A stretch of DNA of 60,587 nucleotides from Stramenopiles sp. TOSAG23-6 (GCA_900128565.1 LT635916.1:1-60587), one strand, 5' to 3'; shown: positions 1,860 through 28,447, counted from the stretch's first letter. Notes: generated from the letters alone by a model not told the origin. Made by a program: numbers and translations.

Positions 1860-3926
1860 ATGTCATACGCATCAATGGATGCAACAGTATCTGCTATCAT
1901 CCTTGGGGTAGCCATTTTGCTTGCAGCGTTACAACCATCTCAGTGGTTGACAATGATTTGTTGTTTACTTTGTCCGTGCGCTTTTGTTTTATTTTACCGC
2001 ATTAATTTTGGTTCATCAAATGCGAAAGCTCCACCACAATTCAAAACTGGCTTGCCTTTAATAGGTCCATTTATTGCATTTGCAAAAGACCCCCTTGGAA
2101 CAGTTTCACGTGCACGTTCTCAGCTTGGTAACGTGTTTACTATTCGCATGTTTCATATGCAACAAACGTTTCTAGTTGGAAGTGCGGCACATAAAGCTTT
2201 CTTTGAAGCAAGCGACGAAGAACTAGACCAAGCTCCAGTATACCGTTTTATGGTACCAGTATTTGGGAAAGGCGTTGTATATGATGCGCCTCTAACTGTT
2301 CGCCGTCAACAATTTCGAATGTTGGGAAATTCCCTCCGTCCCTCTGGTCTTCGACGTTATCCTGAAGTTATTGCTGCTGAGGCTCGTGACTTTTTTTCGA
2401 CATCATATGGCCCATCTGCAGATGTAGATTTACTCCATTCTATGGCAGATTTGACTATTCTTACAGCAAGTGCAACTCTCCATGGTCCAGATGTACGACA
2501 GAAGTTGCACAAACAAGTTTCTCATTTATTTCGACAAATGGACGAAGGAATATCACCGTTGAGTATAGTTATGCCATATCTTCCAACCCCTGCTCACCGT
2601 CGACGTGATGCTGCTCACCGTAAAATGGTTAAACTCTTTGCTGGAGTCATTCGTGATCGTCGGAAAGCTGAACGTCTTGCAGCAAAAACTACTTCAAATA
2701 AAACATCACCACCTACTGATATTCTTCACAAACTAATTCATGCAAAGTATAAAGATGGCACTAGAGTTCCTGGTCATGAAATTGCAGGGATGTTGATTGC
2801 TGCTCTCTTTGCGGGACAACACACATCTTCTGTAACTGTTACTTGGACAATTTTGTTTTTATTGGATAATCACAGAAAACACGAAAAAGAAAATATAGAA
2901 GGAAAAAGTTGGTTGTCCAAAGTATTGGATGAATTAAATGAAGTTGAAACTTTAGATAATTTATTTTGTAATGGTAAAGTTACTCATGATGATGTCAGTA
3001 AAATGAAAATACTTCATGCTTGTGTCAAAGAATCTATTCGAATGTTCCCTCCTTTAATATTTCTCATGCGTCGTGTTGTGAAAAAACCTTTGGATGTTGA
3101 AGGTTTTAAAGTTCCAGTTGGACATAATGTCATGTATGTTTTATGTTTTTTCAATTTCGAGTTTTTTTTTCGTGCGAAATTTTGTACCTAAAGATTTTTT
3201 TTTTGAAATATTTTTCCAAAATATATGGTCTCTAATGCTGTTGCTCAAAGGTTACCTGAAGTATTCGAAAACCCAAACACGTGGCTTCCAGGAAGATGGC
3301 TTGATTTTGATATTCGAACACTTCCACCGTATTCATTCATTGGTTTTGGAGCTGGGATTCATACCTGTATGGGTGAAAGTTTTGCATTTATGCAGATAAA
3401 GACAATACTTGCTGTTTTACTCACTACGTATGATATGAAATTGACAGGTCCATTACCACCAGCTAGTTATGACGCTATGGTCGTGATGCCACGGGGGCCA
3501 AATATAGTCAAATTTCGTCGTAAATCTGGGATTCTACAGTCATCTGTTGGCGTTTCAGAGAAAGAGAAGACTTCTTTGAAGACAGTTACTACAAAATCTC
3601 AAGGAAAAAAAAAATCAAACATATTAAAGACACTACCTTCATCTAACTTTGAGAAAAATGAAAATTCTGATCCAAATGAAGAGTTTGGTCTAGACAGTTT
3701 CACTATTGAAGAAATTTCAAAACATTCAAAACGAGATGATTTGTGGATAATTGTGAAGGATCGTGTCTATGACGTCACACAATTTTTACCTGTTCATCAA
3801 GGTGGAGATTCGCTTCTTAAATGGGGTGGGAAAGATGCCACTGTCGGTGTCTTTGGACCCCAACATCCTTCCACAGTCCCAACCCTATTAAAACGATATT
3901 TAATTGGAAAAGTTGATAGAAACTAA
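1860..3926 (+). CDS. CYP51: Sterol 14-alpha-demethylase (CYP51) with C-terminal cytochrome b5 domain; exons 1860-3133 and 3227-3926
   Basis: N-terminal TM; YRFMVPVFGKGVVYDA, I-helix AGQHTS, ExxR (ESIR), heme motif FGAGIHTCMGE; b5 domain LWIIVKDRVYDVTQFLPVHQGG...GKDAT...QH. Removing 3134-3226 gives GHNVMVSNAVAQRLPEVF. Confidence 0.92.
3134..3226 (+). mobile_element. 93-nt repeated non-canonical GT-AT intron-like element, copy 1
   Basis: GTATGTTTTAT...TTCGTGCGAAATTTTGTACCTAA...TTTGAAATATTTTTCCAAAATATAT; contains in-frame TAA and TGA; similar to 8075-8166 and 27775-27866. Confidence 0.85.
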
Positions 3927-4080
3927 ATATATTGTTTTTTGTCAAATTCTTCCATTGTGATTTTTCATCAAAGAAAATGTCGTAGCGTAACATGTGCCAC
4001 ATAAAGTTTTAAAATTTGGGTAGTTAATTTGATAGACCTGCTGATTTATTTTGTTATTAAATATTAAAATACAATTTATT

Positions 4081-6411
4081 CTATGTAGAACTTTTGTTTC
4101 GATTTGCACGAATTTTTGCCGATAAAGGTTCTGATAGACAATGATCTTTCATTATAATCTCAGCACATTTGTCACCAATCATCATGCAGCATGCATTTGT
4201 ATTCCCAGACGAAATACTAGGCATAACACTTGCATCAGCAACTCGAAGACCTGAAACGTTTCTTACTCTGAGTTGTGGGTCTAAAACAAATTCTGTTACG
4301 TCACCATCAACATGCCCCATTCTTGCTGTACATGCATAATGCCAAGTTGTTCCCACGGAATATTTCGCAAGTGAAGCTAATTGTTCATCAGTAGCATTAA
4401 AAAAATCTTCATTGCCTTTATAACCCCAAACTTTTTCAGCAAATTGAGGTCCAAAAAATGAAGGTTTATGTACACCCATCAAATGTCTCATACATCCTAC
4501 ATATTTTGAAAATGGGGTTGATTTACATATATCACGTATTTTCTTATACACTTCAACCATTGCGTCTAAATCTGAGGAATCACTTAAATAATTTGGATCA
4601 ATGACAGGTTTGTCAAAAGGATCATTAGAGCGAAGAGTAAGAGTACCTCGAGATTGTGGATGATTATATTCAAAACCAAAGATAAATGTTCTTCTTAATC
4701 CTTCTTTTTCACATTCTGGAGCATTTCTACAATATGTCAAAATTAAAGGTTGAAATATAGATTTACCAAACCATGAGTTCATCAAAGTTGAGCCTAATGT
4801 TTGATGTCCAAGTTGTTCTATACCCAAACGTTGTAGTGCACCCATCGCTGGACGTGATATTAAAATGAGTTCTGCATCTGGACCAGAATCAAAATTCTTG
4901 TTTTCATCTCGTTTTTTATCTACATCAGTTTTAAAGAATGCAACTCCATTTAGTGATGAAGTGCTTGATACTTCCACTGGTGTTTTCGTACACTTTAATG
5001 AATCCTCAGACGTAGGATTATCAGGTAAATAAAATCCTATGAAACCTGAAGGATGATCTTGTAGATGTCTTCCTACAGCTGGAACATTAGCAACACATGG
5101 AAGACCATATTTTTTCAATTCATTTGAGTCTCCAATTCCACTTAATAAAAGTATTTGGGGAGTCTGCAAAGCACCGGAACACAATATTACTTCACCACAT
5201 TTATTACACCCACGAATATTTACATTTGAAGCTCGGTTTACATACACATTACAAACAGATCCATCCGATAATGTAACAACAACACCACATGCTTGAGGTA
5301 ATTCCTTAGATGATTCATCTATGGAATCCTTAGATGATTCATCTATGGAATCCTTAGATGATTCATCTATGGAACAACCCCAGTTATCGAAGAGAACCTT
5401 TATAACAAAAGCTTCACTACAAACTGTGAGATTTGGAGTTGTTCTCAGTATTGGCTCGATAAAAGTATTGAAAGCATCAGAGCGAGTTCCACCAGAATTA
5501 GTATTGGAAGATTGTTGAACATGAGCTGAACCAGCTTGTGAACTGCCATTATAGTCATTAGTTCTTGGAATGCCATTTTGGCTGCAAGACTCTACAAATG
5601 CTTCTACTTCTTCCAAAAGTGGAAATGGAACATTTGGAGTCATTAAACCTTCACTTCCTCTATTTTCTGGAACAGAATCTTTTTCTCTTTCCCTAGTAAG
5701 AACATCTCTGCAAGATAACGAAACTTTTCTTGGACAAATCGCTGATTGAGTAACCTTTTCAAGAGCCATAAAATTTGGAAGAACAGAATCATATGACCAT
5801 TCTTCGCCACAACCAAATTCATCACTTGCCCAACGATCAAAGTCTTGAGGAGCTCCTCGTACCCACATTGACCAGTTGAGACAACTAGAACCACCTAAAG
5901 TTTTCCCTCTGTCCAAGTGAATGCATTTACCACGAGGTAGTAAATTACGTTGTGGTTCGGAAGTAAATCCCCAGTCAACTTCAGATCTATATAATGAAAA
6001 TGCATTCGATGGATTTTTAATATTACTAGCATTCTGAGCCTCTCCGCCAGCTTCAATAAGGAGGACTCTCACAGTAGGATCTCTAGAGAGACGATTAGCA
6101 AGGACACAGCCAGCACTACCAGCGCCAACAATGATAAAGTCGAATGGCTCCCTCAATGGATAAGATAAACCAAGATTTTCGTGTGTTGCAATGAAACGAT
6201 TCTCAAATTCAGAAGGTAAAACACCTCCCGGGTTTTCGCAGTTAATTCGCTTACTATGAGTACCTGGGTGACGTAACAAAAACGGTTTGTTTTTTAAGCA
6301 CATTGGAAAAATTATAATTAATAAAACTGCCACAAAAAAATGGACATAAGTAATATCGCTCAGCAATGTCCGATATAAATACAGAAATAAAGGATTCAAA
6401 CTGTCGAACAT
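4081..6411 (-). CDS. GMC (glucose-methanol-choline) oxidoreductase with N-terminal TM segment
   Basis: FDFIIVGAGSAGCVLANRLS, GKTLGGSSCLN, GALQTPQILLLSGIG, HLQDH, C-terminal WHYAC...LRVADASVMP...GNTNA. Confidence 0.93.
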   Translation of the reverse strand: MFDSLNPLFLYLYRTLLSDITYVHFFVAVLLIIIFPMCLKNKPFLLRHPGTHSKRINCENPGGVLPSEFENRFIATHENLGLSYPLREPFDFIIVGAGSAGCVLANRLSRDPTVRVLLIEAGGEAQNASNIKNPSNAFSLYRSEVDWGFTSEPQRNLLPRGKCIHLDRGKTLGGSSCLNWSMWVRGAPQDFDRWASDEFGCGEEWSYDSVLPNFMALEKVTQSAICPRKVSLSCRDVLTREREKDSVPENRGSEGLMTPNVPFPLLEEVEAFVESCSQNGIPRTNDYNGSSQAGSAHVQQSSNTNSGGTRSDAFNTFIEPILRTTPNLTVCSEAFVIKVLFDNWGCSIDESSKDSIDESSKDSIDESSKELPQACGVVVTLSDGSVCNVYVNRASNVNIRGCNKCGEVILCSGALQTPQILLLSGIGDSNELKKYGLPCVANVPAVGRHLQDHPSGFIGFYLPDNPTSEDSLKCTKTPVEVSSTSSLNGVAFFKTDVDKKRDENKNFDSGPDAELILISRPAMGALQRLGIEQLGHQTLGSTLMNSWFGKSIFQPLILTYCRNAPECEKEGLRRTFIFGFEYNHPQSRGTLTLRSNDPFDKPVIDPNYLSDSSDLDAMVEVYKKIRDICKSTPFSKYVGCMRHLMGVHKPSFFGPQFAEKVWGYKGNEDFFNATDEQLASLAKYSVGTTWHYACTARMGHVDGDVTEFVLDPQLRVRNVSGLRVADASVMPSISSGNTNACCMMIGDKCAEIIMKDHCLSEPLSAKIRANRNKSST
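5303..5374. repeat. Perfect 3x 24-nt in-frame tandem repeat (SIDESSKD) in the GMC gene
   Basis: TCCTTAGATGATTCATCTATGGAA three times. Confidence 0.95.
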
Positions 6412-6579
6412 TTTGATTTAATTGGGGTTCTTTTACAGTATATATTCTAATTGATGACAACCTTCAAGACCTGATAATTACCGGCAACAAGACTTGGTGA
6501 AAAGGTAGGGAGAGGAGGAGTCTGTCTTGGCCGAAGAAGTTGGCAGCTGTCATTTTTGTGAACTTGGAAAAGATTACGA

Positions 6580-6594
6580 TTAGGGTTAGGGTTA
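6580..6594. promoter_or_regulatory. Telo-box-like motif TTAGGGTTAGGGTTA
   Basis: In a divergent intergenic region, ~76 nt before ATG 6671; recurs at three other gene starts. Confidence 0.55.
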
Positions 6595-6670
6595 TATTTG
6601 AATGTTAGTTTTCAGAAAAAAAGCGAAATACTCAGATAAAAAACTTCTTTTCTTTCTCAGCATTGGTATA

Positions 6671-9225
6671 ATGCCTCTAGGTTGGGCTCTTTGTCTATTT
6701 CTCTCTTGCAAATTGTTTGTGCTAACACATTCTATCACTCCTACAGATCCTACAGTGGTCAGTGTTGACGTGGCTGTTGATGGAAAGACTTATATTTTTG
6801 AAGTAAACCCTACCATTTCACCTGATGAAGTGTCCGAAAGTGCACGGAGTTGGTGTGAAAGTCATGGTATATCTCAATCTGCTGATCTAAATACATGCGC
6901 ACAAGCCATTTCCAATAGAGTGCAAAATATTAATGCGTCGCCTGATATAAATTCGTCGATAGAAGCAAAGAACCTGCTTGCTGACGCAATGAAGCTTCAC
7001 CGAACAGGTCACTTGAGTAAAGCCATTGAAGTATATAGTCAACTATTAAAGTTGGATCCATTAAATGGTGATGCCTTTCATTTGCTTGGTGGTGCATTTC
7101 AAGGAAATGGTGATGTTATAGAAGCAATTGAAGCATTTCAAGGGGCTTTACGTGTCGCTCCCAAAGTTCCACAGTTCAGCGTTTCCTTGGCAAAAATACT
7201 ACTTTTTGATGCACCAAGTTTGGAACCCTCAAAACTATTAGATATTAGTGGACACCACACAATAAATGAATGGATTGAATCTGTATTACGTTCTGCTTTA
7301 AACCACGGTGCAATGAAAAGTGAAATATCCGGAAATGATCTTGATGCACTAGGGTTTTTAATGCACTTTCTCAATCGTGAAAATCGTCCCATGGACGCAC
7401 TAAAAGCATTTAACAAGTGGAATACTCTTACTACTCTCGATCCAAAAGCAATAAGCAATGCACTACACCTCGATAACTTTCTTAATAAAAATGCAAAGGC
7501 ATATGCTGAATATATAATGGAGGCAGGCTTAGCTTTACACCGTACAGAGTCACTAGAAGATGCTGTTAATATGTTTGAGGCTGCAGCAGCATTTACACCA
7601 AATTCTTCTCGACCATGGATGAATGCTGGTGTTGTCCTTGTTGCATTGAAGCAACATGATAATGCTGGAAAAAGATTTGTTAGAGCTGTGAATGTACAGA
7701 CTAGTTTAGATTGGAATGCTCTACAAAATTGGCAAGGTCACACATATAATAAACATCAAATGACTCAAACATATAATACTACTACGAAAGCAAAAAAGAA
7801 TAAATTTCGTTGGATTTCTCGTCCATTAAACAAGAAAGTAATTGCGATATATTGCAATGAATATGGAAATAGTTGGTGGCCAAAATGGGGTTGGCGTACT
7901 GCTGGTGGTGGTGGCGGTGGTGGTAGTGGTGGTGGAATTGGTGGCTCAGAAGAAGCTGTTGTATTTCTATCTCGTCAATTAGCTAATATTGGGTATTGGG
8001 TAGAAGTGTATGCTAAACCACCTGATGATCAAATAGGTGAGGAACCTGATGGTAATGTTGTATGGTATCCACATGTATGTTTTATTTTTTTTCAATTTCC
8101 AATTTATTTTTCGTACGAAATTTTGTACCTAACAAAAAACATTTGAAATATTTTCCTACAATACATTCCGCTTTCTCTCTTCTTCCTATGGATGCACCTG
8201 ATATTTTTGTTTCATGGCGGTATGCTGTCTCTGCTACTTTGGGTCGATATGCAGGTTTATCATATATATGGCTTCAAGATATTGGTCGTGATATATCATC
8301 ACAGCTTACTTCGCGTATGATGAATTGTATTGATGGTGTGTTTGCTTTAAGCCATTTTCATGTATCACTATTAGATCCTGTTACACAACCAATGGCAGTG
8401 GTAACACCAAATGCACTCGATCCTGCATTTTTTCGAAATGGTAAAAATGCACCGTGGAAATTTATTTATGGAAGTAACCCTTCCAGAGGTCTTGAACAAT
8501 TACTTACGGTATGGCCAAAGATTCGAAATGGACTTGCTCATATGTCTAAAGAATGGAAGAAACACGCGGAAACAGAAAATATGTTGGATGAATATGAAGA
8601 CGGTGCAACACTTTTTGTATATTATGGATTTTCTGAAGCTTTTATGAAATGGGGTAAAGCATCAATGTCTAACTTTGATGAATGGCTTCGACATATGAAA
8701 ACATTATTAAAACAACCAGGTATTCGATATATTGGTATGGTAGGGCATGGGGAATTAGCCGAAGCATATGCAAGCAGTGGATTTTCCTTATATCCTACTT
8801 CTTTCCCTGAAACTGGTTGTGTATCATTAATGAAAGCACAAGCTATGGGCTCTATTCCGATTACTAGTAGATACACAAAATCAACTCTTCCAGAACTAAC
8901 TGCCGAATTTGACCTTGGACCACCTAGTAGACCTGGTAAAATATCTGATGATCCAGAATGGTTGAATGAGTGGGCTGCATCGGTCATTACAGCAGCTGGG
9001 GCTACAGGTGAGAGATTAATAAGTATGAAAAAACATAGAGAGAATATGATTCATTGGGCAAGAAAGAAATTTTTATGGTCACATGTTGCGCACCTATGGC
9101 ATCGATCGTTTCAGCGAGGTGGGGAGAGATTATTTGATGATAAAAAACAAAAGCCAAGATCTATATATTTTGATGAAGAAACTATTGATGCATCGCATGA
9201 AGCAGTATTTTCAAAGAAACAATGA
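6671..9225 (+). CDS. Secretory-pathway TPR-repeat GT-B (GT4-like) glycosyltransferase; exons 6671-8074 and 8167-9225
   Basis: Signal peptide, TPR helices, GIGGSEEAVVFLSRQLA, DIFVSWR, YGSNPSRGLEQLL, YPTSFPETGCVSLMKAQAMG; the two ORFs join in frame when 8075-8166 is removed. Confidence 0.85.
8075..8166 (+). mobile_element. 92-nt repeated non-canonical GT-AT intron-like element, copy 2
   Basis: GTATGTTTTAT...TTTCGTACGAAATTTTGTACCTAAC...TTTGAAATATTTTCCTACAATACAT; contains no AG; removal gives VWYPH|SAFSLLPMDAPDIFVSWR. Confidence 0.85.
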
Positions 9226-9315
9226 TTATTGCTTCAAATAGAATAAATCTCTCTTGATACAATTCATTTTTTTTCTGAAACTTATAATTTATTTGTGACA
9301 ATGTGATGGTACAAT

Positions 9316-10494
9316 TTACTCCTTTTTCCACTTTAATTCAAAATTATGCTTCATTGCAACACATTCCAATAAAGTTTCAAATTCGTGCCAAGAAAGCGTA
9401 CCTGAGCCATCTTCATCCACAATCTTCATCATTTCTAGTATTTCATCTGCACGTAATTCATAATTCATCTTTTTAAACAAAGATTTTAGTTCAGAAATAT
9501 TCAATTCGCCATTTCCGTCAATGTCTGTAGATAAAAAGTTTCCTTTCACATCACTAATATCAGGCAATTTAGCAATTTGAGATAATGCCGTCGACCAGGT
9601 TCTTTTACTATTTACTTCTCGACGCTGCTTTTCATATTCAGATATTTGTTGTACTATCTTACAAAACTCAGGTAAATCTATCTTGTTATCATTATTAAAG
9701 TCTGCACTTTCCATTATATTTTTCACATATTCAGTGGAAACTTCTGAGCCAGACTTTTTAAGTGCCAACATGAGCTCATCAAAATCTATACTGCCGCTTT
9801 TATCTCGATCTATTTTACGAAATGTAGTTTCTACACTACTATTTGATAAAGACATTCCAAGTAGTCCTCTTACACTATCCTGTTTTAAAATAATTCTTTC
9901 ATCAAGTGCTTGAGCAAGCCAACCATGTGAGTGTAAATTAGTGATATGAGGTTGAATTTCATTTTGTATAAATTCTTGACCCCAATGAACCATAATATTT
10001 GCCGCCTCATGAGCAGTATATCCACCATTATTCTCGTGAAGGATAAAAAGAATTTCTGATGCAGGAAAACGTTCAAGAAGGTGCGCAACATAGTCATCCT
10101 GCCAAAATTCATCCTTAAAATGAAGTTCATCAATTACATTAGCTACAATTTCTTTATCGCAATTTGACAAGATTTCAATAACATGTAAGAAATCCCATTT
10201 TCGCATAAAATAACATAATCGGGTAGTACCCATTCGTTTGTGAGAGAACACTGAAATTAGTCTTTCATTTTTCCAACCGTGAATTAATTTTTCTAGTTCT
10301 TTAGCCGTATAATCTTGACACGCGATCATAAATTTATTCACTGTCCATGTTTCAAGCACCTTATTTAACTTTTCTTTATCGCAGGCGTCGTTCAAAACCT
10401 GTCTCAACTCAGCAAACCAGTTGTAATTTAGAGCTTCAGACTCAACTATATCTGTAGTAGACGGGGTAACGTCGAATGTATCGGCATTTGACAT
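9316..10494 (-). CDS. Protein with four C-terminal EF-hands and an unrecognised helical N-terminal half
   Basis: Loops DRDKSGSIDFDE, DFNNDNKIDLPE, DIDGNGELNISE, DEDGSGTLSWHE; first ATG at 10494. Confidence 0.88.
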   Translation of the reverse strand: MSNADTFDVTPSTTDIVESEALNYNWFAELRQVLNDACDKEKLNKVLETWTVNKFMIACQDYTAKELEKLIHGWKNERLISVFSHKRMGTTRLCYFMRKWDFLHVIEILSNCDKEIVANVIDELHFKDEFWQDDYVAHLLERFPASEILFILHENNGGYTAHEAANIMVHWGQEFIQNEIQPHITNLHSHGWLAQALDERIILKQDSVRGLLGMSLSNSSVETTFRKIDRDKSGSIDFDELMLALKKSGSEVSTEYVKNIMESADFNNDNKIDLPEFCKIVQQISEYEKQRREVNSKRTWSTALSQIAKLPDISDVKGNFLSTDIDGNGELNISELKSLFKKMNYELRADEILEMMKIVDEDGSGTLSWHEFETLLECVAMKHNFELKWKKE

Positions 10495-10795
10495 TATAAA
10501 GTTGCGCTTATTAAATGATGTATTAATATTAGATATCAATCAATGGCAAAGATAAGTGCATTCAAAAAGACTTTTGTTATTTGTAGTAAGTGGAGGTGAA
10601 GGTTACTTCAATTGAAATGTGTGATCAAAATTTAGTAGGTTGGCTAAACCAATTTATAATTATTCCCTTGGGCTAAATAGCTAACCCAGTTTATTTTTTA
10701 ACCGTTAACTAACGCGTATTAACGTATCAATTTTTGAACAACACATAGCTACAGATCGGATCGATCAATGGTCATTATTTAGGGTTGTAAAAGTT

Positions 10796-12811
10796 ATGTC
10801 GAGGTCTTTTTCAAAATTTATTGTGATTGGTGGTGGCATTGCAGGTGTAACTGTTGTCTCTGAGTTAAGCCAGCGTCTCCCCTCAGCATCAATACTGTTG
10901 ATAAGCGCCAGTGATACGGCCAAATTTCCTGTGAATGTAACTCAGGTAACTCAAAACTTGGATACATTTGACGTAGCTGAACAGCCCCTGGAAAAATTAT
11001 TAGACTGTAGTCCAAATGTGTCGGTAATGAAAGCATGGGTAGCGTCGATTGACTCCGAGAAGAAGATTGTTCGTACCACTAAAGGACAAGAAATAAAATA
11101 CGAACGCATATGTTTTTGTACAGGTGCAATTCCAAAACTTCTTGTTCAGAACCATCCAAATATTATAGGAATCCGTGACACAGACAGTGTTCTAAAACTT
11201 GCCTCTCGACTTTCTACTTCGCGTCGAGTGCTGATTGTTGGTAATGGAGGTATAGCTCTTGAACTTGTTCATGCTGTTCAAGATGTTGAAATTATATGGT
11301 CCACTAAAGATGCATATATAGGCAATACATTTTTTGATGCCACTGCAGCTGATTTTTTTATGCCCGAACTAAAGCAGAGATTAAAAACTCCTTTTGAATT
11401 ATACGGGAAAACTACAAAAATCAATGAAGTAGACATGATAGAAACAGAATGTTATAATACTAGAGATAAAATTAATGATTGTAATACACAGAATCTACCG
11501 ATCCAGAAAGTGACACCAATCGAACCAATAGGGACATCAATGGGACCAAAATGGTTAAGTATATTACAATCTATGACAAATACTTCTTTATCAAGTCCTT
11601 TGCAGTGTGTGTCTCCGTCCTCTTCAAAGAAGAAAAATGTTTTTCATAAAGGTTGTTGCAGTCATGGTATTCAAAAGGGTATTTATATGTTTGATGAAGA
11701 AATGTCGAATACTACTACCACTACTACTACTACTACTACTGAGAGAGACAATAAAGAATTTTGTAGAAAACATAATAAAAAGTCAAAACCGTCATCATTA
11801 GTCTGGGAAAAGCTAACAGAAATTGACTCAATATGTGATACCCACAATAAAAATATTTCAGAATTTCATTACTGGTGTAAAATATCCAAACTACCAAATG
11901 GTAGAACGAATGAAAATTTTCACCAGGAAGCACCCAGTAACAAAAATCAAGATATTGTATCACAATCAATAATAAAGCAATCTGGTAATTGGCCACTACT
12001 TGTGCGATTAACTAATGGTGCTGTATTTGGATGTGATATCATTATTTCGTGTATTGGTGTTGTGCCTAATTGTAAAGTAGCACCGATTGAATGCCTTGTG
12101 AATAAAGACTTTGGTGGGTTCATTGTAGATAAACGTATGCGCATACAACAATATCAACGAAATAATGATCAGAAGAATAGTGTTTGTGTACCCTACGCTA
12201 AAGGTTCTATATTTGCAGCTGGCGATTGTACGTTCATAAAATCAAATGAAAATTGGTTTCAAATGAAATTATGGAGTCAAGCACGAACTGCTGGTTCTTA
12301 TGCCGCGCAATGTATGGCAGATCAAGTAGATTGTCTCGAAGGAGGTATGCGTTTTGAATTATTTTCTCATGTGACATCATTTTTTGATAGACGTGTTGTA
12401 CTATTAGGTTCATTCAATGGACAAAATATGGGCTTACCTGAAAATACAATTGTAGACTTTACACACTTTATAATGACAAAATCAGGGGTAAAACGTGTAA
12501 AACAACGTCAAAACTATCTAAATAATACAAAGTGTTTTGTTGATAATCCTGATACAACATATCGTGATTCAGCGTCTTCCTCAAAAGACGCAGATATTGA
12601 AGTGATATTTCGCATTACTTCATCTAAAGAATACATAAAAGTTGTCTTTCAATATGGTAGAGTTGTCGGAGCTGTACTCATTGGTGATACTGGTCTTGAA
12701 GAAACTATTGAAAACTTGATCCTTGATCGACTTGATGTAAGATCAGTATTTCGTGGTGATTGTGCTGCTCTTTTAGATCCTCGTGTTGATGTTGAAGATT
12801 TTTTTGACTAA
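10796..12811 (+). CDS. PYROXD1: Pyridine nucleotide-disulfide oxidoreductase domain-containing protein 1
   Basis: IGGGIAGV, IRDTDSV, VGNGGIALEL, WFQMKLWSQAR, FELFSHVTSFF, GDTGLEETIENLIL, C-terminal LLDPRVDVEDFFD. Confidence 0.92.
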   Translation: MSRSFSKFIVIGGGIAGVTVVSELSQRLPSASILLISASDTAKFPVNVTQVTQNLDTFDVAEQPLEKLLDCSPNVSVMKAWVASIDSEKKIVRTTKGQEIKYERICFCTGAIPKLLVQNHPNIIGIRDTDSVLKLASRLSTSRRVLIVGNGGIALELVHAVQDVEIIWSTKDAYIGNTFFDATAADFFMPELKQRLKTPFELYGKTTKINEVDMIETECYNTRDKINDCNTQNLPIQKVTPIEPIGTSMGPKWLSILQSMTNTSLSSPLQCVSPSSSKKKNVFHKGCCSHGIQKGIYMFDEEMSNTTTTTTTTTTERDNKEFCRKHNKKSKPSSLVWEKLTEIDSICDTHNKNISEFHYWCKISKLPNGRTNENFHQEAPSNKNQDIVSQSIIKQSGNWPLLVRLTNGAVFGCDIIISCIGVVPNCKVAPIECLVNKDFGGFIVDKRMRIQQYQRNNDQKNSVCVPYAKGSIFAAGDCTFIKSNENWFQMKLWSQARTAGSYAAQCMADQVDCLEGGMRFELFSHVTSFFDRRVVLLGSFNGQNMGLPENTIVDFTHFIMTKSGVKRVKQRQNYLNNTKCFVDNPDTTYRDSASSSKDADIEVIFRITSSKEYIKVVFQYGRVVGAVLIGDTGLEETIENLILDRLDVRSVFRGDCAALLDPRVDVEDFFD

Positions 12812-12865
12812 ATAAATAAAAATAATAAATTAGATTTTGATAAGTGTATTCAAAATTTTCAGAAT

Positions 12866-18800: not shown

Positions 18801-18808
18801 AAGAACAT
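12866..18808 (-). CDS. Giant secreted cysteine-rich repeat protein with coiled coil and a LamG/concanavalin-A-like domain
   Basis: Signal peptide; many CxxxxDCxxGxxCxxxxC modules; LIWHVSAS...DLSGNG...FNGLLHEALIFDHFL...YL pattern; many N-glycosylation sequons. Confidence 0.8.
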   Translation of the reverse strand: MFFTVLAVLIFIQCSGNHIMVCAQLQSRLLNNGLNLTLSMDANATRDNLKKMTSNMTXKVIKESNATSKVINESNATSNASSYNSAKINSIYVNFTTMETEAVYFTVGESLTNEHLETIAKTMARTVQSKSKCSCLPGSELNRDLYCVCLPGKSENKKKTKWEDPPENLTLSPLNFTVVRRNTTTLNITSTIHLPKRKGNDTKLDMGTLFVKNSMKKLPFMPGIDASCDFQCDNVARSYFDTCFGLCEARKCKNVRIAAENEIKMFEKANLGADVININLSSDMTRFQYETQHFHKNMRIIKAALKCETYWFKKVNMNIEASNAKNKVAADRTEIESFMQGILKPLQQKYVDDKLAETNFLFLALKERYKMLLAGEIPLPEGEIAAYDIAYAADLQRVHLREELLKLNSETFKIKKGTAEYKKHMSRLRKTKFKLKASSIKQAEESAIRSRIQTINSALDHVHSEKKLLELLPKPSQKHQIEKLKKKELELKMELQVRMGALNVIKVEIGSPCTQHEECGLAQWCEPDKESLEISRWMITDKSESRMTGAVKNRLVLSESIATKGQCQKTQKNMYDSPCKVPDYTSTKECGNEFYCFSKKCRFVPLGIPCSLSSPCGMSQTCVDGYCLRTRGVSLPSDACTTVLDCALDMRCSGGRCLPVSAGTSCITTQNDFDGSSGCGNGQRCQTGALSGTCMYNYNTICNNEDTIDTCGTGKTCISGKCRPAYTRIISRSSTSVIHHCSVDFDCSFGERCYTQHGSSQCVTTYPNSINSMKASQCMKSSDCAIGYKCHKSAHYCTDAMIEKFPKCGPNKECEGYGFLCFLDRCRPIFGRHERSVDETVGLRCKSNIIGHIHKCKDTMECTTQEKCENFECVIKNDLYTCKQKSDCGLSMACKNRVCTYVPHRFRCPGGNKDCGHGQVCVSKYCRDIFHVCGCETFKEGALCNKDLDCGCGQRCIGEACTSNKVRSSCSSRNDCGNGQVCQANQCRQLRDSTACSDSKDCGLSQTCSLQKNCVNNFNIGELCDANKAPIERLKHCLNYVRGSNLYEQLVKKTKNLTDLKSTRNMCLQQSLSRSLPRFKQIQKSSSTKSIEVDGTSNNENSTSIKPPDDIVSDIKIPNTLPGGLIWHVSASKGVHIKHTNGQKSIQAITDLSGNGFNLFPIRGDHSPTIENSIDQNYLLKRSKAREHTLSLKFTGEPDSSLVSHKHFNFTNPTNITFVIAAKLPKHTDGTQCLFSIQNFNAGKENNSTRPFFSFMRSQDGHLEVWQGNRTPRTGMLPENKNKNLSMFDLNNKYKKRELLTTNEMEFLTNAENITAAIHEKYLPEDAREEWVVLMISTTIGSTNVIKSDRRFQNITAWGATDKTLWEEEEITMVKDKTLLKPFLHLGITIDMAEKLGPLLLGPRTPAYDSPNTADKTKDFMNMTGRFVVGGGCPFRAHSLSTAGFNGLLHEALIFDHFLDKEERQSMLVYLNEGSVWQANKLNRTINKLQWEIQHVEDLIKKHTTHSYLNKTTHSKGKQNNTLKHKLAVESLQNVRNILNTRLSKLNSTSLDKMRFRETLSTEASISLRMKKEADKIVSESIALPNVDEDRLYQFVLGCMCDSTLQCNDEFDSSGTLWKNVCTSDFNCNSGFVCIKGFCISTRLQERINNTVSVHFPYRLATKINNTIVASSFDDIPMNITKLCNGAILGNGESCLADQSKANTQTCSKADDCSGENVNCMYGKCVERTGDPCGLNEDACASPQICYNGVCGFTTAVLDGEKCKVSIDCGLNQICYKDTCRNLYGHDKLAEETFKIVERQQVYKTGIKAGFAKNILHTRQNITKSLNNTNSISLLMEQALEGIQQKLKNGKNSSMKQKKSIMDNLSKLMHSLTNIPPVSAAPGSRANELQNLKNELNNWLALNHQTKNDTTTSCSSLNECAIFCRSVGRPIEASMDIIPYGCVKSKTKCWWNTNAESNGMLNSGYEHCSSVFGDRNKKFV

Positions 18809-19127
18809 TATATATACGAAAGAAATTATACCTTCTATCTATACCCAAACGTCTCCCCTGAAGAACACACAATGTTCAAATTGCGTTCAATTTTGCTCCT
18901 GTGACATTTAAATTAAAAATTCGCATTTTTTCGTTCAGTTCGAAGTTCGAACATCTCGATCGATCAGTCACACCTCGAATCAGGCCTTCTACCACAAGTA
19001 AACTACGCTTATTAATAGTAAATGATAAAAGCGACGATATTAGTTATAGGAATCACAATAACGGATTAGTATATTTGTTATAATCTTGAATTGCATTATT
19101 TGTGTATACATATAGTACAAAGGAACG

Positions 19128-21527
19128 ATGGAAGTCTTTGATGGCTTTGCTTTAGCTGCGTATTCAGGGGGGTTGGATTCTGGTAGCGTTCGACCACCAA
19201 TGCAAATTGGCCTTCACCCGGAAACAATTTTTGCGGCTAAATTTAGTCCTTATAGCCGAGTGAAGCTGGTACGCAACATGCGAGACAATAGTATTCGAGG
19301 TAGTAATGTAAATCGTGTGACAATAAAAGGGGGTGAAAACGTTAAGGATACGATAGTGTTTTGTGAAGTAGTCCCTGATATTGATGTAGACAAAAGCAGT
19401 GTCGCGGTTCAACCGTGGGTTCTCAGTGTTTTTGGTCTACCAGAAGGAGGAATATTAAATGTATCTAGTGTGCCACAAATTACAAATTTAACTGATCCAG
19501 TTGAAGATAACACTTCAATATTGACAGAAACGCCTCAGGACGTTAGTAGCATATTCGTTGAGTCATTGGGTAGTTTCCCACCTCGACCAGGCGATGTTCT
19601 TTCTTTTGGTTGGGATAGTAATGACAACAAAATATTTTCTCTGAAGAATTCTATACTTCGATCTCTCCATCGACAACTACACGGTCATATTTTAGCAGTT
19701 GGCTCTATTTTTGCATCTATTATGATGGGAAATATATTATTATTTAAAGTAGTATCTGGAAATAGTATATCAAACAACAAACTTTGTCAAGTTGGAGAAA
19801 ATGTTTGTTTGAAATTTGCAGATAAATTTGCAAACAATAATTTGAATAAAGTAAAGGCAACTGATCATTCAGAACATGATATAGTAGTTCCAGGACATTC
19901 AAAAAAGGCTCATGAATTACTTGAAAATATACGAATGGTTTTAGGTATTGGGAAAAACTCTGAAGATATTTCGAAAAAAGATGACTCTCGTGTTTTAAGA
20001 CCTGGTGGTATAATTCTACATGGCCCTCCAGGATGTGGTAAAAGTTATCTTTTATCATGCACCTTACAATATTTATTAGCTAGAGGAAATGTTTCTGGAT
20101 GTGTCTGCATTTCATCACATAAATTATTTGATATGAAAAGTACTAATTATTTGAATAATGCACTGAACGATATCACGAAATTATCTACAGATTACACAAA
20201 TGCAGAACCAAATTTTATTCGAAATGTTACTGGATTTTATAATAGTGTATTTGTTGTTTTAGAAGACTTGGATATGATTTCTAGTCATCCTAGTATATCT
20301 TCAAAACTTTTATCATTTGTCAAAAGCATAAAAAAAATCAGTAATATTTGTATCATTGGTGTGTGTCGTAATCTAAACTGTGTACCTCAATCCTTTTCTG
20401 GTAATGGTATGCTTGAATTATCTGTAAAACTTTCGCCACCGGTTGTAATGGAACGTCAAGAGATGCTTGATGTGATAATAAAAAACCATCAAAGTAAAAA
20501 ATATGATGTGGACAGTGCAGTAATAGAGACAAGAAGTTTGATATCTAGTGAATTGAGTTGTCTTACTAGTGGATATGTTGCGGATGATTTAGTCCGTCTC
20601 ATTCGAACATCGAAATTGATGGCATTGGCAGATGTAGAAGAAAAAGGCCTTAATAATCATCAAAAGACAAATAGTATAAATTGGAAATATTATCAGGCGG
20701 CTCTACACGAAATCCGTCCATCACAATTACATAATTTAGATGTAAAAGTTCCAATAGAACGATGGGTTGATATTGGTGGTTATGATGATATAAAACGCCG
20801 TCTTCAACAATTAATTCAGTGGCAGTGGTTGCATCCAGAAAAATTTAATTCTCTAGGAGTTGCAGCAACTTCTGGTGTATTATTATATGGTCCTTCTGGT
20901 TGTGGGAAAACTCTTTTTGCACATGCTTTAGCCGGAGAATGTTCTGCTAATTTTGTATCTGTAAAATCTACAGAATTGTTTTCACAATATCTAGGTGAAA
21001 GTGAAGCTGCATTACGTAATATATTTACAAAAGCAAGGGCTGCGGCACCATGTATTCTTTTCTTTGATGAAATTGATTCTTTAGCAATGGGTAGGGATTT
21101 ATCTGGAGGTGGTGATAAGGCTAGTGGTGTTGCTGAAAGAATGTTGGCTACATTATTGAATGAAATGGATGGTGTCGAAAGCTCAAATGGTGTAGTTGTC
21201 TTAGCAGCAACAAATTTAATATCTAATATTGATAAAGCCTTACTTAGACCAGGCCGTATTGATCAATCTATTTATATAGGCCCACCGGATAAATCTACTC
21301 AGAAAAGTATTTTAGAAATAAATACAAAGAAAACACCTCTTGCAAAAGATGTAAACTTTGATGAGATTTTAGCTGAAAGATGGGTAGAGAAAAGGACTGG
21401 TGCTGATCTCTGTAGATTATGTCAAGAAGCAGCGCTTGTGGCACTGAGAAGTGACTTAAATATTCCGTCTGTATCAGCCATTCACTTCAAAACCGCTGCA
21501 ATTGAGTTAGGGTACACTCATGAATAA
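19128..21527 (+). CDS. CDC48-family double AAA+ ATPase (AFG2/SPATA5L1-like)
   Basis: D1 GPPGCGKS with degenerate Walker B (VVLEDLD); D2 GPSGCGKT, FFDEID, ALLRPGRID. Confidence 0.88.
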   Translation: MEVFDGFALAAYSGGLDSGSVRPPMQIGLHPETIFAAKFSPYSRVKLVRNMRDNSIRGSNVNRVTIKGGENVKDTIVFCEVVPDIDVDKSSVAVQPWVLSVFGLPEGGILNVSSVPQITNLTDPVEDNTSILTETPQDVSSIFVESLGSFPPRPGDVLSFGWDSNDNKIFSLKNSILRSLHRQLHGHILAVGSIFASIMMGNILLFKVVSGNSISNNKLCQVGENVCLKFADKFANNNLNKVKATDHSEHDIVVPGHSKKAHELLENIRMVLGIGKNSEDISKKDDSRVLRPGGIILHGPPGCGKSYLLSCTLQYLLARGNVSGCVCISSHKLFDMKSTNYLNNALNDITKLSTDYTNAEPNFIRNVTGFYNSVFVVLEDLDMISSHPSISSKLLSFVKSIKKISNICIIGVCRNLNCVPQSFSGNGMLELSVKLSPPVVMERQEMLDVIIKNHQSKKYDVDSAVIETRSLISSELSCLTSGYVADDLVRLIRTSKLMALADVEEKGLNNHQKTNSINWKYYQAALHEIRPSQLHNLDVKVPIERWVDIGGYDDIKRRLQQLIQWQWLHPEKFNSLGVAATSGVLLYGPSGCGKTLFAHALAGECSANFVSVKSTELFSQYLGESEAALRNIFTKARAAAPCILFFDEIDSLAMGRDLSGGGDKASGVAERMLATLLNEMDGVESSNGVVVLAATNLISNIDKALLRPGRIDQSIYIGPPDKSTQKSILEINTKKTPLAKDVNFDEILAERWVEKRTGADLCRLCQEAALVALRSDLNIPSVSAIHFKTAAIELGYTHE

Positions 21528-21988: not shown

Positions 21989-22336
21989 AATAATACTCTT
22001 ATATCAAGAATCTATTGGTCCAATAAATTCATTGAAAATAAATCAAAAGAACCTAACAAGATGTATTGTATTATATATAGGTCAGGTAAGTCTATAAAAT
22101 TGCTATTTTTTTCGGTTTTGACACGTGTTGTTTGAAACCATTTTTTATATGTCTACAGCTATATCCTGGCAAATATTTGGACATGGGGTCGAGAAATAAA
22201 TATCCACCCACCACGGTGTGTATATATAAAATAAACGACGAACGAAGAGTATCCGAGTCCTACCTCTATCGACGATTGGACAAGTATCGACGTGAAAAGT
22301 AGTTGCATTTTGCAAGATATACTTACCAATTTAACA

Positions 22337-23137
22337 ATGCTAATCTTTGAAGATATTTTCCCTTTTATTGGTTTAGCTGTGTTTCTCTCCGGTTTTGTTT
22401 CTATTTTACACAGTTGCCTTTCATTTGCAAAAAGTGAGGACAACGTCTTTGCTCGATCAAGGAAGCAGAGAACCTTCAAGGGATACCTTGGTGGTGATAT
22501 CACTATATATCAAGCTTTCGATGGGTCTAGTTATGGCAGTTGTACTGGTGGTAGTGTTGGAGCATCTGTATGGAGATCTGCAGTCGTTCTTGGTCAATAT
22601 CTTCAGGCTAATTCAGAAAAACTCAATATAAAAGAGAAAGTGGTTCTTGAGTTGGGTTGTGGCACTGGCATTACTAGTATTATCGCATCACGATTAGGTG
22701 CCAAAGTATTTTGTACAGATGGGGATGAGCAATTATTGAAACTAACTAGGCGAAATATAGATAAAAATTTGTCTGCTGAAAAACGAGAGAGTTGCATTGT
22801 AAAGAAATTACACTGGGGAAGCACTGACGATGTTGCAAAAATAGAATCTTCAGTAGATCTCATTATTGCAGCAGATGTTATTTATCATCCATCAAATTTT
22901 CAATCTTTTGTATATACATTAGAAAGTATTGGTCAACGCAACGTTAATTTCACTGGAAGTAAATCTATAAAATTTATATTGGGCTATACAAAGAGATTTA
23001 CGAGTGACAAACTGTTTTTCGACATTTTACATAAAAGTTCATATTTATCTTCTCCGTGCCTTTTATTGGATGATAAAGATTCTGGCGTCAAAATATTTGA
23101 ATATACTATTTTTAATAAAACTCTCAAAAGAGGATAA
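22337..23137 (+). CDS. METTL21-family protein-lysine methyltransferase
   Basis: VGASVWRSAVVL, VLELGCGTG, TDG, LHWG, DLIIAADVIY; first ATG at 22337, start uncertain. Confidence 0.88.
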   Translation: MLIFEDIFPFIGLAVFLSGFVSILHSCLSFAKSEDNVFARSRKQRTFKGYLGGDITIYQAFDGSSYGSCTGGSVGASVWRSAVVLGQYLQANSEKLNIKEKVVLELGCGTGITSIIASRLGAKVFCTDGDEQLLKLTRRNIDKNLSAEKRESCIVKKLHWGSTDDVAKIESSVDLIIAADVIYHPSNFQSFVYTLESIGQRNVNFTGSKSIKFILGYTKRFTSDKLFFDILHKSSYLSSPCLLLDDKDSGVKIFEYTIFNKTLKRG

Positions 23138-25798: not shown

Positions 25799-25820
25799 AA
25801 TAATAATAGTAACTATGGTT

Positions 25821-26657
25821 TTAATTAGATGATTGTGCCATATTTTTAGCGTTAAGTCTTCTTGTTATACATAAAGTATCATTATCATCTTTACATCTTT
25901 TACACTTACTATCATTTGGATTACATTCCCAGTAAGGCACAAAAGCACCAGACCGTTTTCGAGCTTCACTGCTCTTTCTATTGACACAAATGCAACGAAT
26001 ATTTGTGCGATTTTTATCATGAAAGTCTAAATAAGTGTACTCCCTTGGAACATGCGTTTCATCACACCAAACCGTTGATCCATCAACTGCAGTCCACTGG
26101 CTATTACACCTTGGATATTTTATAGTATCAGCTTCTGAAAGTTTCTCATTTTCTTCCCTTTGTTCAATTCTTTTATTTACTATTCTCAATTCTTCTGTAG
26201 GCCGTCCTGAATCATCATAATATCGACCAACTAGCACACCCTTAAATGTGTATTTTTCATGATTTTCATAAAAAGATTTCCAATCAACGACTCCCTTTAA
26301 CTCTCCAGAACTCAGAGTGGTGACATCGTCAGTTAAATTGTCCCCTTCAAAAATACCAGTTGCGAATGACGCAGATATATCACACCCACTAAAGCACGCA
26401 TACCCACCATTTTTACCATAATATTCCCTGCCTTTAGTCACATCGTATACTCGGCCTAGCACAGCAAGATAAATTTCATCTGGATTATTGGGTCCAAACT
26501 TTGAGAGCTCATTAACTGTAAATATTCTATTAATTGTCTCCGTTTCCACAAGAGGAGAAGAAGAGCCAGGAATATTGAGGTCATTTGTAAAAAAGATACC
26601 GATAGCCAGAGCAACTAATGCTACTAATATCATGGTCAGGATAGAAATATAATTCAT
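25821..26657 (-). CDS. CYB5D2: Neuferricin-like MAPR/cytochrome b5-like heme-binding protein
   Basis: N-terminal hydrophobic segment, YLAVLGRVYDVTKGREYYG, DISASFATG, GVLVGRYYD, YPRCNSQW...VWC. Confidence 0.85.
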   Translation of the reverse strand: MNYISILTMILVALVALAIGIFFTNDLNIPGSSSPLVETETINRIFTVNELSKFGPNNPDEIYLAVLGRVYDVTKGREYYGKNGGYACFSGCDISASFATGIFEGDNLTDDVTTLSSGELKGVVDWKSFYENHEKYTFKGVLVGRYYDDSGRPTEELRIVNKRIEQREENEKLSEADTIKYPRCNSQWTAVDGSTVWCDETHVPREYTYLDFHDKNRTNIRCICVNRKSSEARKRSGAFVPYWECNPNDSKCKRCKDDNDTLCITRRLNAKNMAQSSN

Positions 26658-26924
26658 TCTATTTCGTGATTATGGCTGTGAATCATAATACTATTGGATT
26701 GATTTTGTTTGGGAGAGAGTGTTTAATCATTTAATGGTTGATGTCAACAAGCCGACTAATAGCAAATCTGAATTTGACACGTGTTTGACATCATTCTAGA
26801 AAAAAATGTAGCCTAACTTGCTATACGATACGTAGTGTGTCTGTCAGACTCTGTCTACTATCCAGTTGATGTAATTGTACAAGTACTAGCATCTTGTTTG
26901 AAAAGAATACAATAATAGCTAATA

Positions 26925-28447
26925 ATGAGCAAGAAAAATATTGCGGTTATTGGAGGTGGTATTAGTGGATGCGTTTCTGCTGCTTTTCTTCGAATGAGTG
27001 GTCACAATGTCACAATATTTGAAAGTAATGCTTTCTTGGGTGGAAGAGCTATAACCCTTCAAACAAATTCTTTGGAAGCTAGTACAGAGAGTTGTTCATC
27101 AATATCGAATATTGATTTGGGTGCACAGTTTATTACGGTAACAGATCCACGCTTCAGGGTTTTCATTAATTCTCCTATAATGCAAGGGATACTTCAGCCA
27201 TGGAGTCAGAATTTTTCAGTTATTGGTTGTACCCCAGGTCATAGTGCAGTTTTACAACGAGACATTGCTCTCCAAAATTTCAAACTAGATGTTGCAAAAG
27301 AGTATAGCAATGATGAAGTTCAGCTGCAGCGTAATGCTCCAATGAATTTTTGTGGTTTTTTAGAATGTGAAAGAAAGGCAAAAAGTGTAGAGGAATCTAG
27401 AACAATCTATACTGGCCGTGATGGTGTTGGAAGTTTCTGTTATGACTTACTCAAACGAACAGGTGTTCATGATATTGTTAGTGATGCATATGTGAAATCT
27501 GTTGATTTTCAACAGTCTAGTCTGTCATGGTCTGTCATTACAGAAGAAAACAAATCAAATTCAAATTTTACAAAGTTAACTTGTGATAGAGAAAACTCTC
27601 ATGGTCCTTTTGACTTTTGTATTTTAGCCAATAATGATGCAAAGTTTGCTGCTGATACGATTGACAAGTTAATGTGTGATACAACAGATCATGAAATGCG
27701 TGATACACAAGTTCGTGAAATTATCAACGATTTCACTTTGAAACTTCGAGAATTGGAAAAGACAAATGTAAACTGTATGTTTTATTTTTTTTCAATTTCA
27801 ATTTTGTTTTCGTACGAAGTTTTGTACCTAACGGGTTTTTTTTTGAAATATTTTTCCAAAATACATGTTATTCACTTGTTGTTAAATTTGAAACTTTTTT
27901 AGATGTTCCATTTGATGCTGCTTCGCTTCAGGGTTCTTTAGCACTTTCATTTCTCTCTCGAGATTCATCCAAACCAGGTAAATATAATACATATGAAGGA
28001 TCTACAAATGTTGAAGAAGAATTCTGGGTTGTACAATCAACTCCTGAGTTTGCTGCTTGGATAGATTCATTTTTTCCCGACATTGAAATGGAAAAATCTC
28101 AAACTATCAAACTACAAAAAGCTGAAAAAGAATTATGGTCAGAATTTAAGCGTGTAATTGAACCAATTTTGAGAAAAGAAGCAACAAAATCGGATGGTTT
28201 TGACAATAAGATTAATTTCCCCAAACATTGTTTTGTTGAAACAAAAAGATGGGAAAAAGCATTCTTTGAAACACCAATGAAATTAAATGAAAATGATCAA
28301 AATAATAATGATGCTGTAACATTTAAACCATGGTGTCTTGCACTGGCGGCTGATTATTTAGGGGAAATACAATGTATACAGAGTGCGGCCCTCAGTGGTC
28401 TTATGTCGGCTGATAGAATAAATCAATGGATATCCTTAAATAAATAG
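26925..28447 (+). CDS. Renalase-like FAD-dependent oxidoreductase; exons 26925-27774 and 27867-28447
   Basis: IAVIGGGISG, DLGAQFIT; after removing 27775-27866: CYSLVVKFETFLDVPFDAA, RDSSKPG, WVVQSTPEFA, then continuous with ORF 28088-28447 (ADYL...AALSG). Confidence 0.88.
27775..27866 (+). mobile_element. 92-nt repeated non-canonical GT-AT intron-like element, copy 3
   Basis: GTATGTTTTAT...TTCGTACGAAGTTTTGTACCTAAC...TTTGAAATATTTTTCCAAAATACAT; removal corrects the frameshift (AAC T|GT TAT). Confidence 0.85.

Follow-up and report, generated by a model that had tools for sequence, protein, structure and literature searches.

A 60,587-nucleotide (nt) stretch of DNA from Stramenopiles sp. TOSAG23-6 (GCA_900128565.1, LT635916.1:1-60587; this whole stretch is called the window below) carries three copies of a short repeated insert, each of which interrupts the coding sequence of a different gene (Table 1). 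The hosts are a CYP51-cytochrome b5 gene, a TPR/glycosyltransferase-like gene, and a renalase-like gene (genes 1, 2, and 3, with inserts 1, 2, and 3, respectively). A preliminary description of the window, made from its sequence alone, regarded the inserts as a family of mobile introns with the non-canonical ends GT...AT. Here, we weigh that idea against public proteins, public contigs, and seawater DNA and RNA runs.

Table 1. Host genes, element copies, and the verified ordinary intron in the window (ORF, open reading frame). Equivalent placements are boundary choices that give an identical messenger RNA (mRNA).
Feature	Position	Strand	Description	Exons or motifs	Equivalent boundary placements
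Host gene 1	1821..3926	+	CYP51 sterol 14-demethylase-cytochrome b5 fusion; Pfam p450 and Cyt-b5	exons ORF start-3133, 3227-3926	
Element copy 1	3134..3226, 93 nt	+	insert 1, in CYP51-cytochrome b5 gene, phase 2	GTATGT 3134-3139; CTAAA 3188-3192 (family consensus CTAAC); end ATATAT	AT..AT, TG..TA, GT..AT, TA..TG
Host gene 2	6602..9225	+	TPR and C-terminal glycosyltransferase-like domain; Pfam TPR	exons 6602-8074, 8167-9225	
Element copy 2	8075..8166, 92 nt	+	insert 2, in TPR/glycosyltransferase-like gene, phase 0	GTATGT 8075-8080; CTAAC 8129-8133; end ATACAT	AC..AT, CA..TA, AT..AC, TG..CA, GT..AT
Host gene 3	26925..28447	+	renalase-like FAD/NAD(P)-binding oxidoreductase; Pfam NAD_binding_8 and Amino_oxidase	exons 26925-27774, 27867-28447	
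Element copy 3	27775..27866, 92 nt	+	insert 3, in renalase-like FAD oxidoreductase gene, phase 1	GTATGT 27775-27780; CTAAC 27828-27832; end ATACAT	TG..CA, GT..AT, TA..TG, AT..GT
Ordinary GT-AG intron	37296..37405, 110 nt	-	in DnaJ-GYF gene, phase 0	GTAAGT...TATAG	

A family of inserts in unrelated genes

The three inserts can be aligned with one another from end to end (pairwise identity 80.6%, 82.8%, and 89.2%), and the similarity ceases at their borders, the flanks being unalignable; the positions, the common length, and the consensus given in the preliminary description are thus borne out. Their 25-nt core (TTTTCGTRCGAARTTTTGTACCTAA) occurs three times on the plus strand of the window, against an expectation of 0.00 from 100 shuffles. 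A search of the window with a profile of the three copies (nhmmer --max) returned these three only, with E values from 5e-22 to 2e-20, the next match having an E value of 1.2, and a repeat search showed the family (repeat family D4) to be the sole dispersed repeat of such kind in the window. As had been noted, the base before each window copy is an exonic T and every copy has the orientation of its host; copies and hosts alike lie on the plus strand. Because the copies are 11-19% divergent and the host genes are otherwise intact, the insertions are not brand new.

A fourth copy was found when public metagenome contigs were queried with the 25-nt core, which gave a single match, the seawater contig L001; the same core had no match in prokaryote-genome contigs and none in viral contigs. 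The element in L001 is again in the sense orientation and follows an ORF with a match to DNA polymerase delta (E 1.5e-4), the exon ending in CAT ahead of GTATGT. Beyond the element, the contig passes into unrelated sequence rich in AT and into a sequencing adapter, and the element's 3' end is lost. All four copies that can be read base by base therefore lie on the sense strand of coding sequence, and the proposed intron-like family in unrelated genes gains a member from outside the window.

Need for exact removal

Homology demands that the insert be removed exactly in all three genes, which upholds the earlier claim that such removal restores the frame and the family motifs. In gene 1, joining 3133 to 3227 gives GHNVM followed by VSNAVAQRLPEVF, a stretch that is unbroken in P0002, P0003, and P0006 (GHNV[WM]VSNAVAQRLPE). 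Joining 8074 to 8167 in gene 2 gives WYPH followed by SAFSLLPMDAPDIFVSWRY, which aligns without gaps and at equal length with P0211 (WYPH to DAPDIFVSWRY); 2,724 relatives of the downstream exon of this gene were found. The junction of gene 3 (27774 joined to 27867) reads NVNC followed by YSLVVKFETFLDVPFDAASLQG and is gapless against nine of nine aligned homologs. The PDB search with the exons of gene 3 found renalase (E 6e-6), with no alignment near the junction.

Left in place, insert 1 brings an in-frame TAA stop, insert 2 puts ORFs 6602-8146 and 8062-9225 in different frames, and insert 3 is open in the upstream frame, so that ORF 26925-27902 runs through it. We considered AG acceptors farther downstream and rejected each of them. 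The AG at 3250 in gene 1 is in frame, yet its use loses VSNAVAQR; that at 8254 in gene 2 would remove 180 nt and leave the wrong frame; and that at 27902 in gene 3, a good-looking acceptor (ttttttAG), is in frame, yet it loses 12 conserved residues.

The public gene models P0001 (gene 1) and P0121 (gene 3), which were forced to GT-AG introns, extend into the element, P0001 by nine residues (YVLCFFNFE) and P0121 by 20 (CMFYFFSISILFSYEVLYLT), and leave out conserved residues. Judging from these two models, the protein catalogs of marine metatranscriptomics are likely to be wrong at every copy. A search for proteins that read through the element gave four candidates and one match, which was the same gene's public model.

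Some further features of the host proteins were observed. The fusion of CYP51 to cytochrome b5 is common to most of the closest relatives, which have both Pfam families, and is not found in distant CYP51s. P0001 also lacks two stretches that are present in the ORF of the window and in the homologs, namely SWLSKVLDELNEVETLD and one after RGPNI. For gene 2, the public protein P0210 (252 residues) shares 99% identity with the last 209 residues (8596-9225), and its first 43 residues resemble another frame of the upstream DNA, which implies that its source has an indel or is spliced differently.

Boundaries and anatomy of the element

For each insert, every boundary placement that gives an identical mRNA was enumerated by a script (Table 1). 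GT..AT and TG..YA alone occur in all three inserts, and no placement of any of the three ends in AG, exactly the result reached in the preliminary description. An AT-AC boundary, tried as another common solution, is possible in insert 2 alone.

GTATGT stands at the first base of the element in four of four copies and fits the major-type 5' splice site GTRNGT. The branch-site-like TACCTAAC is located 33-34 nt from the 3' end in two of the three window copies, insert 1 having CTAAA. A central palindromic core (CGTACG...GTAC) lies upstream of CCTAAC, which is followed by a variable T-rich spacer, by TTTGA and TTCC at 20 nt and 9-10 nt from the 3' end, respectively, and by a final A(C/T)AT. The element has short terminal inverted repeats, (A)TGTAT/ATACA(T), and a subterminal pair, TTTCAA/TTGAAA, the arms being otherwise poorly matched. 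The window contains no autonomous transposon whose ends match those of the element. AT is present on both sides of GTAT...ATAC in two of the three window copies, so that the intron equals the element plus one AT, which would be the trace of a target-site duplication; the copy in L001 likewise has CAT on its 5' side. The three copies are predicted to share one three-helix hairpin, in which the last two exon bases and GUAU pair with AUAC and AU in a terminal helix that places the cut sites 2 nt apart.

In every host gene, the two junctions carry one and the same codon, in frame on the 5' side and again in frame on the 3' side: ATG/ATG (3132-3134/3225-3227), CAT/CAT (8072-8074/8164-8166), and TGT/TGT (27774-27776/27866-27868). 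This repeat is probably a by-product of the (C)AT(G) target and of the G...C ends of the element. It is also the geometry that translational bypassing needs.

The source organism and its presence in seawater

The best protein matches of the window are EukProt gene models of GSMAST32 (CYP51 is 95% identical, and the renalase-like protein is 100% identical in the part that matches), which identifies the organism as a MAST-3-type marine stramenopile. The next-best CYP51 relatives have about 60% identity, and Incisomonas is among the matches. Long ORFs make up 87% of the window and are evenly divided over both strands, and the genes are eukaryotic: besides CYP51-cytochrome b5, they include GMC oxidoreductase, EF-hand, AAA, TIP41-WD40, DnaJ-GYF, ankyrin-IQ, PP2C, carbonic anhydrase, and PCIF1. 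The source of the window is a compact, intron-poor marine eukaryote, an uncultured flagellate, and the stretch was detected in seawater DNA and RNA runs from nine studies.

Four seawater runs were compared with positions 1-20000 of the window, where inserts 1 and 2 are located; the comparison gave 6,148 matching pieces, of which the best 32 were considered, and 137 joints between pieces, of which the best 15 were considered. In a DNA run from 2024 (X3), single-copy contigs (depth 7.8-8.8) extend from flanking sequence into inserts 1 and 2. Records 9 and 10 enter insert 1 from both flanks, and record 12 starts inside insert 2. The filled sites were therefore present in a sample taken nine years after the possible source run.

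Within the element, the depth is of another order. The summed element depth in X3 reached 60,682 at 3192 and 50,139 at 8100, about 7,000 times that of the flanks, and it shows in an independent DNA sample that the family is highly repeated. Nearly all of the X3 depth at 3192 (59,404 of 60,682 units) is C, which makes CTAAC the family consensus, as had been read from the window. Given this depth and three copies per 60 kb, the data point to at least a thousand-odd copies of the element, in a sum that may include relatives. Because an approximately 7,000-fold depth goes together with a window that is 87% coding, the copies could not all be gene-killing.

All of the best 15 of the 137 joints lead from the 3' end of an element to the 5' start of an element on the same strand, which fits a co-orientation of neighboring copies, and no joint of an empty site is among these 15. 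Matches to the metagenomes typically start at 8072/8073, that is, with CAT or AT before GTATG, and stop at 3223 or 3227. Many DNA contigs and some RNA contigs match the central core alone (~TTTTCGTACGAAATTTTGTACCTAAC; 8101-8139 and 3163-3215), beyond which unrelated sequence rich in AT follows on one side or on both. These contigs represent either sister families that share the core or members whose arms are much more variable than the core.

Element depth in polyadenylated RNA

Two of the compared runs are of polyadenylated (polyA) RNA. The element depth was 26.4 in run X6, against 2-5.8 for the flanks (a ratio of about 5-13), and 654.5 in run X10, against 2-13 for the flanks (about 50-330), which places the element-to-flank ratio in polyA RNA 20- to 1,000-fold below that in DNA. 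X6 covers the CYP51 exons on either side of insert 1. One of its contigs (record 19) covers 2832-3134 and then shows five unmatched letters, at a place where the DNA contig extends to 3157. The depletion in polyA RNA and the divergence of record 19 at the donor (3134/3135) are indirect and only hint at removal. A joint that skips 92 or 93 nt is not among the best 15 of the 137, which is evidence neither for nor against removal.

Proposed mechanism and its alternatives

The observations above suggest the following course of events. A short, non-autonomous mobile element, GTAT...ATAC, would insert at (C)AT sites and come to lie between two copies of AT. Transcribed within its host gene, it would then be excised from the precursor of the mRNA together with the 3' copy of AT, by which the mRNA would be restored to the base. 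The element would supply its own 5' splice site (GTATGT, from its first base) and, in TACCTAAC, its own putative branch site, which precedes its 3' end by about 34 nt. At the 3' side, the cut would follow ...A(C/T)AT with no AG; its place would presumably be fixed by how far it lies from the branch site, by the terminal helix (exon-AU and GUAU with AUAC and AU), or by both. We favor the major spliceosome, with a relaxed 3' rule, as the agent of such removal at the RNA level. The chances seem to us about even that the inserts are an introner of this kind, resembling a miniature inverted-repeat transposable element (MITE), in a MAST-3-type stramenopile, spliced at GT...AT. In a broader form, which leaves the machinery wider, we lean slightly toward the view that the whole MAST-3 lineage, whose members are abundant grazers of the ocean, carries mobile introns on the order of a thousand or more, removed at a uniform GT...AT with a 3' site chosen without AG, either by a spliceosome (the major one or a co-evolved minor one) with a changed 3' rule or by structure-guided excision.

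Several points weigh against this proposal. A terminal T at the 3' end is not known to work well in the major spliceosome. RNA that spans any of the three junctions is not among the best 32 of the 6,148 pieces, and the element itself is still found at 3192 in polyA RNA contigs (four in X6 and nine in X10). The contig depths are sums over all organisms of a metagenome and are a poor gauge of copy number or expression. A further run labeled as RNA (X7) covers 27 of 30 bins evenly and has a ratio like that of DNA; we gave it no weight. The anatomy rests on four readable copies (three in the window and L001), and random insertion would put all three window copies on the sense strand of coding sequence with a probability of about 0.08. 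The AT repeat of insert 3 is imperfect (CT/AT), and the predicted hairpin is not significantly stable when compared with shuffled sequence (z -1.1 to -1.7).

The nearest alternative keeps the mobile intron and changes the machinery, in that a minor, U12-like spliceosome, with a 3' site set by distance and tolerant of ends other than AG, would remove it; we regard this as unlikely. The preliminary description did not consider this route, although what it said of the family itself, namely the repeated sense copies, the exact removal, and the lack of an AG end, holds. GT-AT is a documented pair of U12-type introns (PMC1557818; bioRxiv 10.1101/2020.10.12.336362; here and below, the literature is cited from the accessible parts of the articles), Physarum has gained thousands of transposon-like U12-type introns (bioRxiv 10.1101/2020.10.12.336362), and the stramenopile Blastocystis has all four minor small nuclear RNAs (snRNAs) as well as minor introns by the hundred, which are short and possibly young (PMC10639083). 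The start of the element (GTATGTTTT) agrees at eight of nine positions with GTATCTTTT of Physarum and at seven of nine with GTATCCTTT, and the TTTGA at 20 nt and the TTCC-A-rich motif at 9-10 nt from the 3' end could also be seen as minor-type signals. Against this, positions +5/+6 of the element are GT, whereas U11 and U6atac pair with CC (or CT) there; accordingly, GTATGTTT agrees with the extended U12 donor [GA]TATCCTT at six of eight positions and is mismatched at these two. No exact TTCCTTRAC branch motif was found in the element copies, TACCTAAC lies 33-34 nt from the 3' end instead of the usual 10-20 nt, and GTATGT is a perfect donor of the major type. A spliceosome of either kind would be dispensable if inverted repeats juxtaposed the junctions and guided a non-spliceosomal removal, as proposed for the nonconventional introns of euglenids, which leave as circles. 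The predicted hairpin common to the three copies, with its cut sites 2 nt apart, would suit such a route, and non-canonical ends with short direct repeats are also seen in the elements of euglenids and Amoebophrya (PMC11282704, PMC7789003). We nevertheless consider it improbable: the folds are no more stable than those of shuffled sequences, the euglenid pairing of CAG (+4 to +6) with CTG (-8 to -6) is missing, these positions being TGT and AAA or CAA in the element, and conserved GTATGT and CTAAC would be unnecessary for removal that needs no spliceosome. No such machinery is known outside Euglenozoa.

The remaining alternatives dispense with introns altogether. If the inserts were ordinary MITEs that are never removed, the three genes would be broken or truncated, or the filled alleles would be a minority in the population. 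Exact "restoration" upon removal of the element and one copy of the repeat holds for any cut-and-paste transposon insertion, no spliced RNA was directly seen, RNA contigs do contain the element, and the sense placement of the three copies has the chance probability given above. We find this quite unlikely all the same, since CYP51 would be deprived of its b5 domain and of the region with the heme-binding cysteine, gene 2 would have a shifted frame, DNA polymerase delta would be hit as well, and yet the downstream exons are all open and conserved in spite of the 11-19% divergence of the copies. The same filled sites in the 2024 sample, a depth that suggests thousands of copies in an approximately 87% coding genome, and the depletion of the element in polyA RNA relative to DNA speak against it too. 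A precise excision of the DNA in the expressing nuclei, like that of the internal eliminated sequences of ciliates, would keep the element out of all transcripts and would account for transposon-like ends with a short repeat and for genes that are restored when the element and one copy of the repeat are taken out. We think it very improbable: nuclear dualism is not known in stramenopiles, DNA contigs enter the element from its flanks at normal depth with no empty-site joint among the best 15 of 137, and the element is found in polyA RNA contigs. Translational bypassing, in which the ribosome leaves the mRNA at a take-off codon and lands on another of identical sequence, has in its favor the identical in-frame codons at both junctions of three of three genes. 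It is barely credible to us, the codon repeat being largely explained by the (C)AT(G) target and the G...C ends; furthermore, the take-off codon is followed neither by a stop codon nor by a take-off hairpin of known type, 92 nt exceeds the known bypass gaps, and the element is depleted in polyA RNA.

Comparison with known introners and non-canonical introns

When new introns appear in bursts, the leading explanation is their gain through transposons. Almost all introner families described so far obey the GT/GC-AG rule. Like the introners of Micromonas pusilla and Aureococcus anophagefferens, the element of the window is a short, non-coding, MITE-like DNA element that is found many times over in unrelated genes. 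What look like terminal inverted repeats and a flanking repeat are further points in common, and in both cases one splice site comes from the element, whose removal with one copy of the repeat would leave the mRNA unchanged (PMC11282704, PMC9860276). As far as these sources go, however, the introners of Micromonas and Aureococcus are canonical (GT/GC-AG), one of their sites is often made in the duplicated target, and their flanking repeat is 3-8 nt long, whereas the element described here ends in AT with no usable AG and has a repeat of 2 nt (AT).

The introner elements of Amoebophrya resemble it in several respects: the host is a marine protist, the repeated introns have ends other than GT-AG, gene predictors fail on them, a predicted hairpin of inverted repeats brings the exon ends together, and the boundaries are spanned by direct repeats a few nucleotides long (PMC7789003). 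Those of Amoebophrya, by the same account, have no consistent terminal dinucleotides, fall into many families, and have inverted repeats of 8-20 nt (PMC7789003), in contrast to one homogeneous family with a perfect GTATGT, CTAAC, a uniform GT...AT, and a perfect terminal repeat of only ~5-6 nt; moreover, Amoebophrya is an alveolate and the host here is a stramenopile. In the tunicate Fritillaria borealis, species-specific, MITE-derived introns with non-canonical ends are removed by a more tolerant spliceosome (PMC11282704), but there it is mostly the 5' end that is odd (AG-AC, AG-AT), and here an ideal GT donor is combined with an odd 3' end only.

The U12-type introns of Physarum polycephalum are also young, apparently transposon-derived, and counted in thousands, with short inverted repeats (rtatctt...aagATAT) and a 2-nt TA repeat; GT-AT is an accepted pair among them, and the annotation pipeline had discarded introns other than GY-AG (bioRxiv 10.1101/2020.10.12.336362). 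They differ, in the part of that report available, by an extended RTATC[C/T]TT donor and by a TTTGA branch motif 10-12 nt from the 3' end that matches a changed U12 snRNA, against GT at +5/+6 and a TTTGA 20 nt from the end in the present element. The nonconventional and intermediate introns of euglenids share with it non-canonical junctions, inverted repeats that pair the ends, repeats like target-site duplications, and a suspected MITE origin, and they are set apart by the CAG/CTG pairing, a highly variable length, and the lack of a polypyrimidine tract, the element here being T-rich and of fixed length (PMC11282704).

We found no report in the literature of this intron family or of introners in MAST stramenopiles. 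The accessible text of the paper on MAST single-cell genomes contains neither "splice" nor "canonical" and has "intron" twice, in the methods only; that of the Incisomonas paper does not mention "intron". Two introner surveys (PMC9860276, PMC12130899) name neither MAST nor stramenopiles in the main text available, and their supplementary species tables may include the lineage. Surveys built on annotated introns would miss such a family.

If the proposed mechanism is true, current gene catalogs of MAST-3 organisms are systematically wrong at every element site, and non-canonical introners extend from alveolates, tunicates, and euglenids to stramenopiles. The family would also offer a clean natural system for studying the choice of the 3' site without AG, being homogeneous and high in copy number, with a textbook donor and branch motif and an AT end.

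Ordinary introns and other features of the window

The window also contains an ordinary GT-AG intron, in the DnaJ-GYF gene (Table 1), which shows that the organism has a spliceosome. The Pfam DnaJ match of ORF 34503-37226 begins at profile position 28, and joining across 37405 to 37296 regains J-domain positions 1-27. The preliminary description had counted two canonical introns; this one is verified, and the count of two was not reproduced. Two other GT-AG candidates (22086-22376 and 25909-25793) were unconvincing on reading, the output of the script for introns between ORFs being mostly noise, and the ORF overlap at ~29650-29740, also tried as an intron, coincides with N bases and was rejected as one. 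An Rfam scan of the window found no RNA family and thus no minor snRNA there.

Three N bases are located at 29740-29770, where ORFs 28487-29737 and 29653-31779 (minus strand, an ankyrin protein) overlap out of frame; this is probably a spot of low quality that splits one gene. In the minus-strand ORF 452-1183, for which no Pfam match was found, two to three tandem copies of a 183-nt unit (77-92% identical) occupy 710-1131. The end of the window (60314-60587) has perfect inverted repeats with arms of 43 nt and 35 nt, 100% complementary, which may come from amplification or from an assembly fold-back and not from biology. At the other end, two blocks of a 24-nt tandem repeat (ATAAACATCACATCAKCACCASAA-like) occupy 11-391, and the depth of this bin in the DNA run (91 versus ~8, an approximately 10-fold excess) indicates that this sequence is repeated elsewhere.

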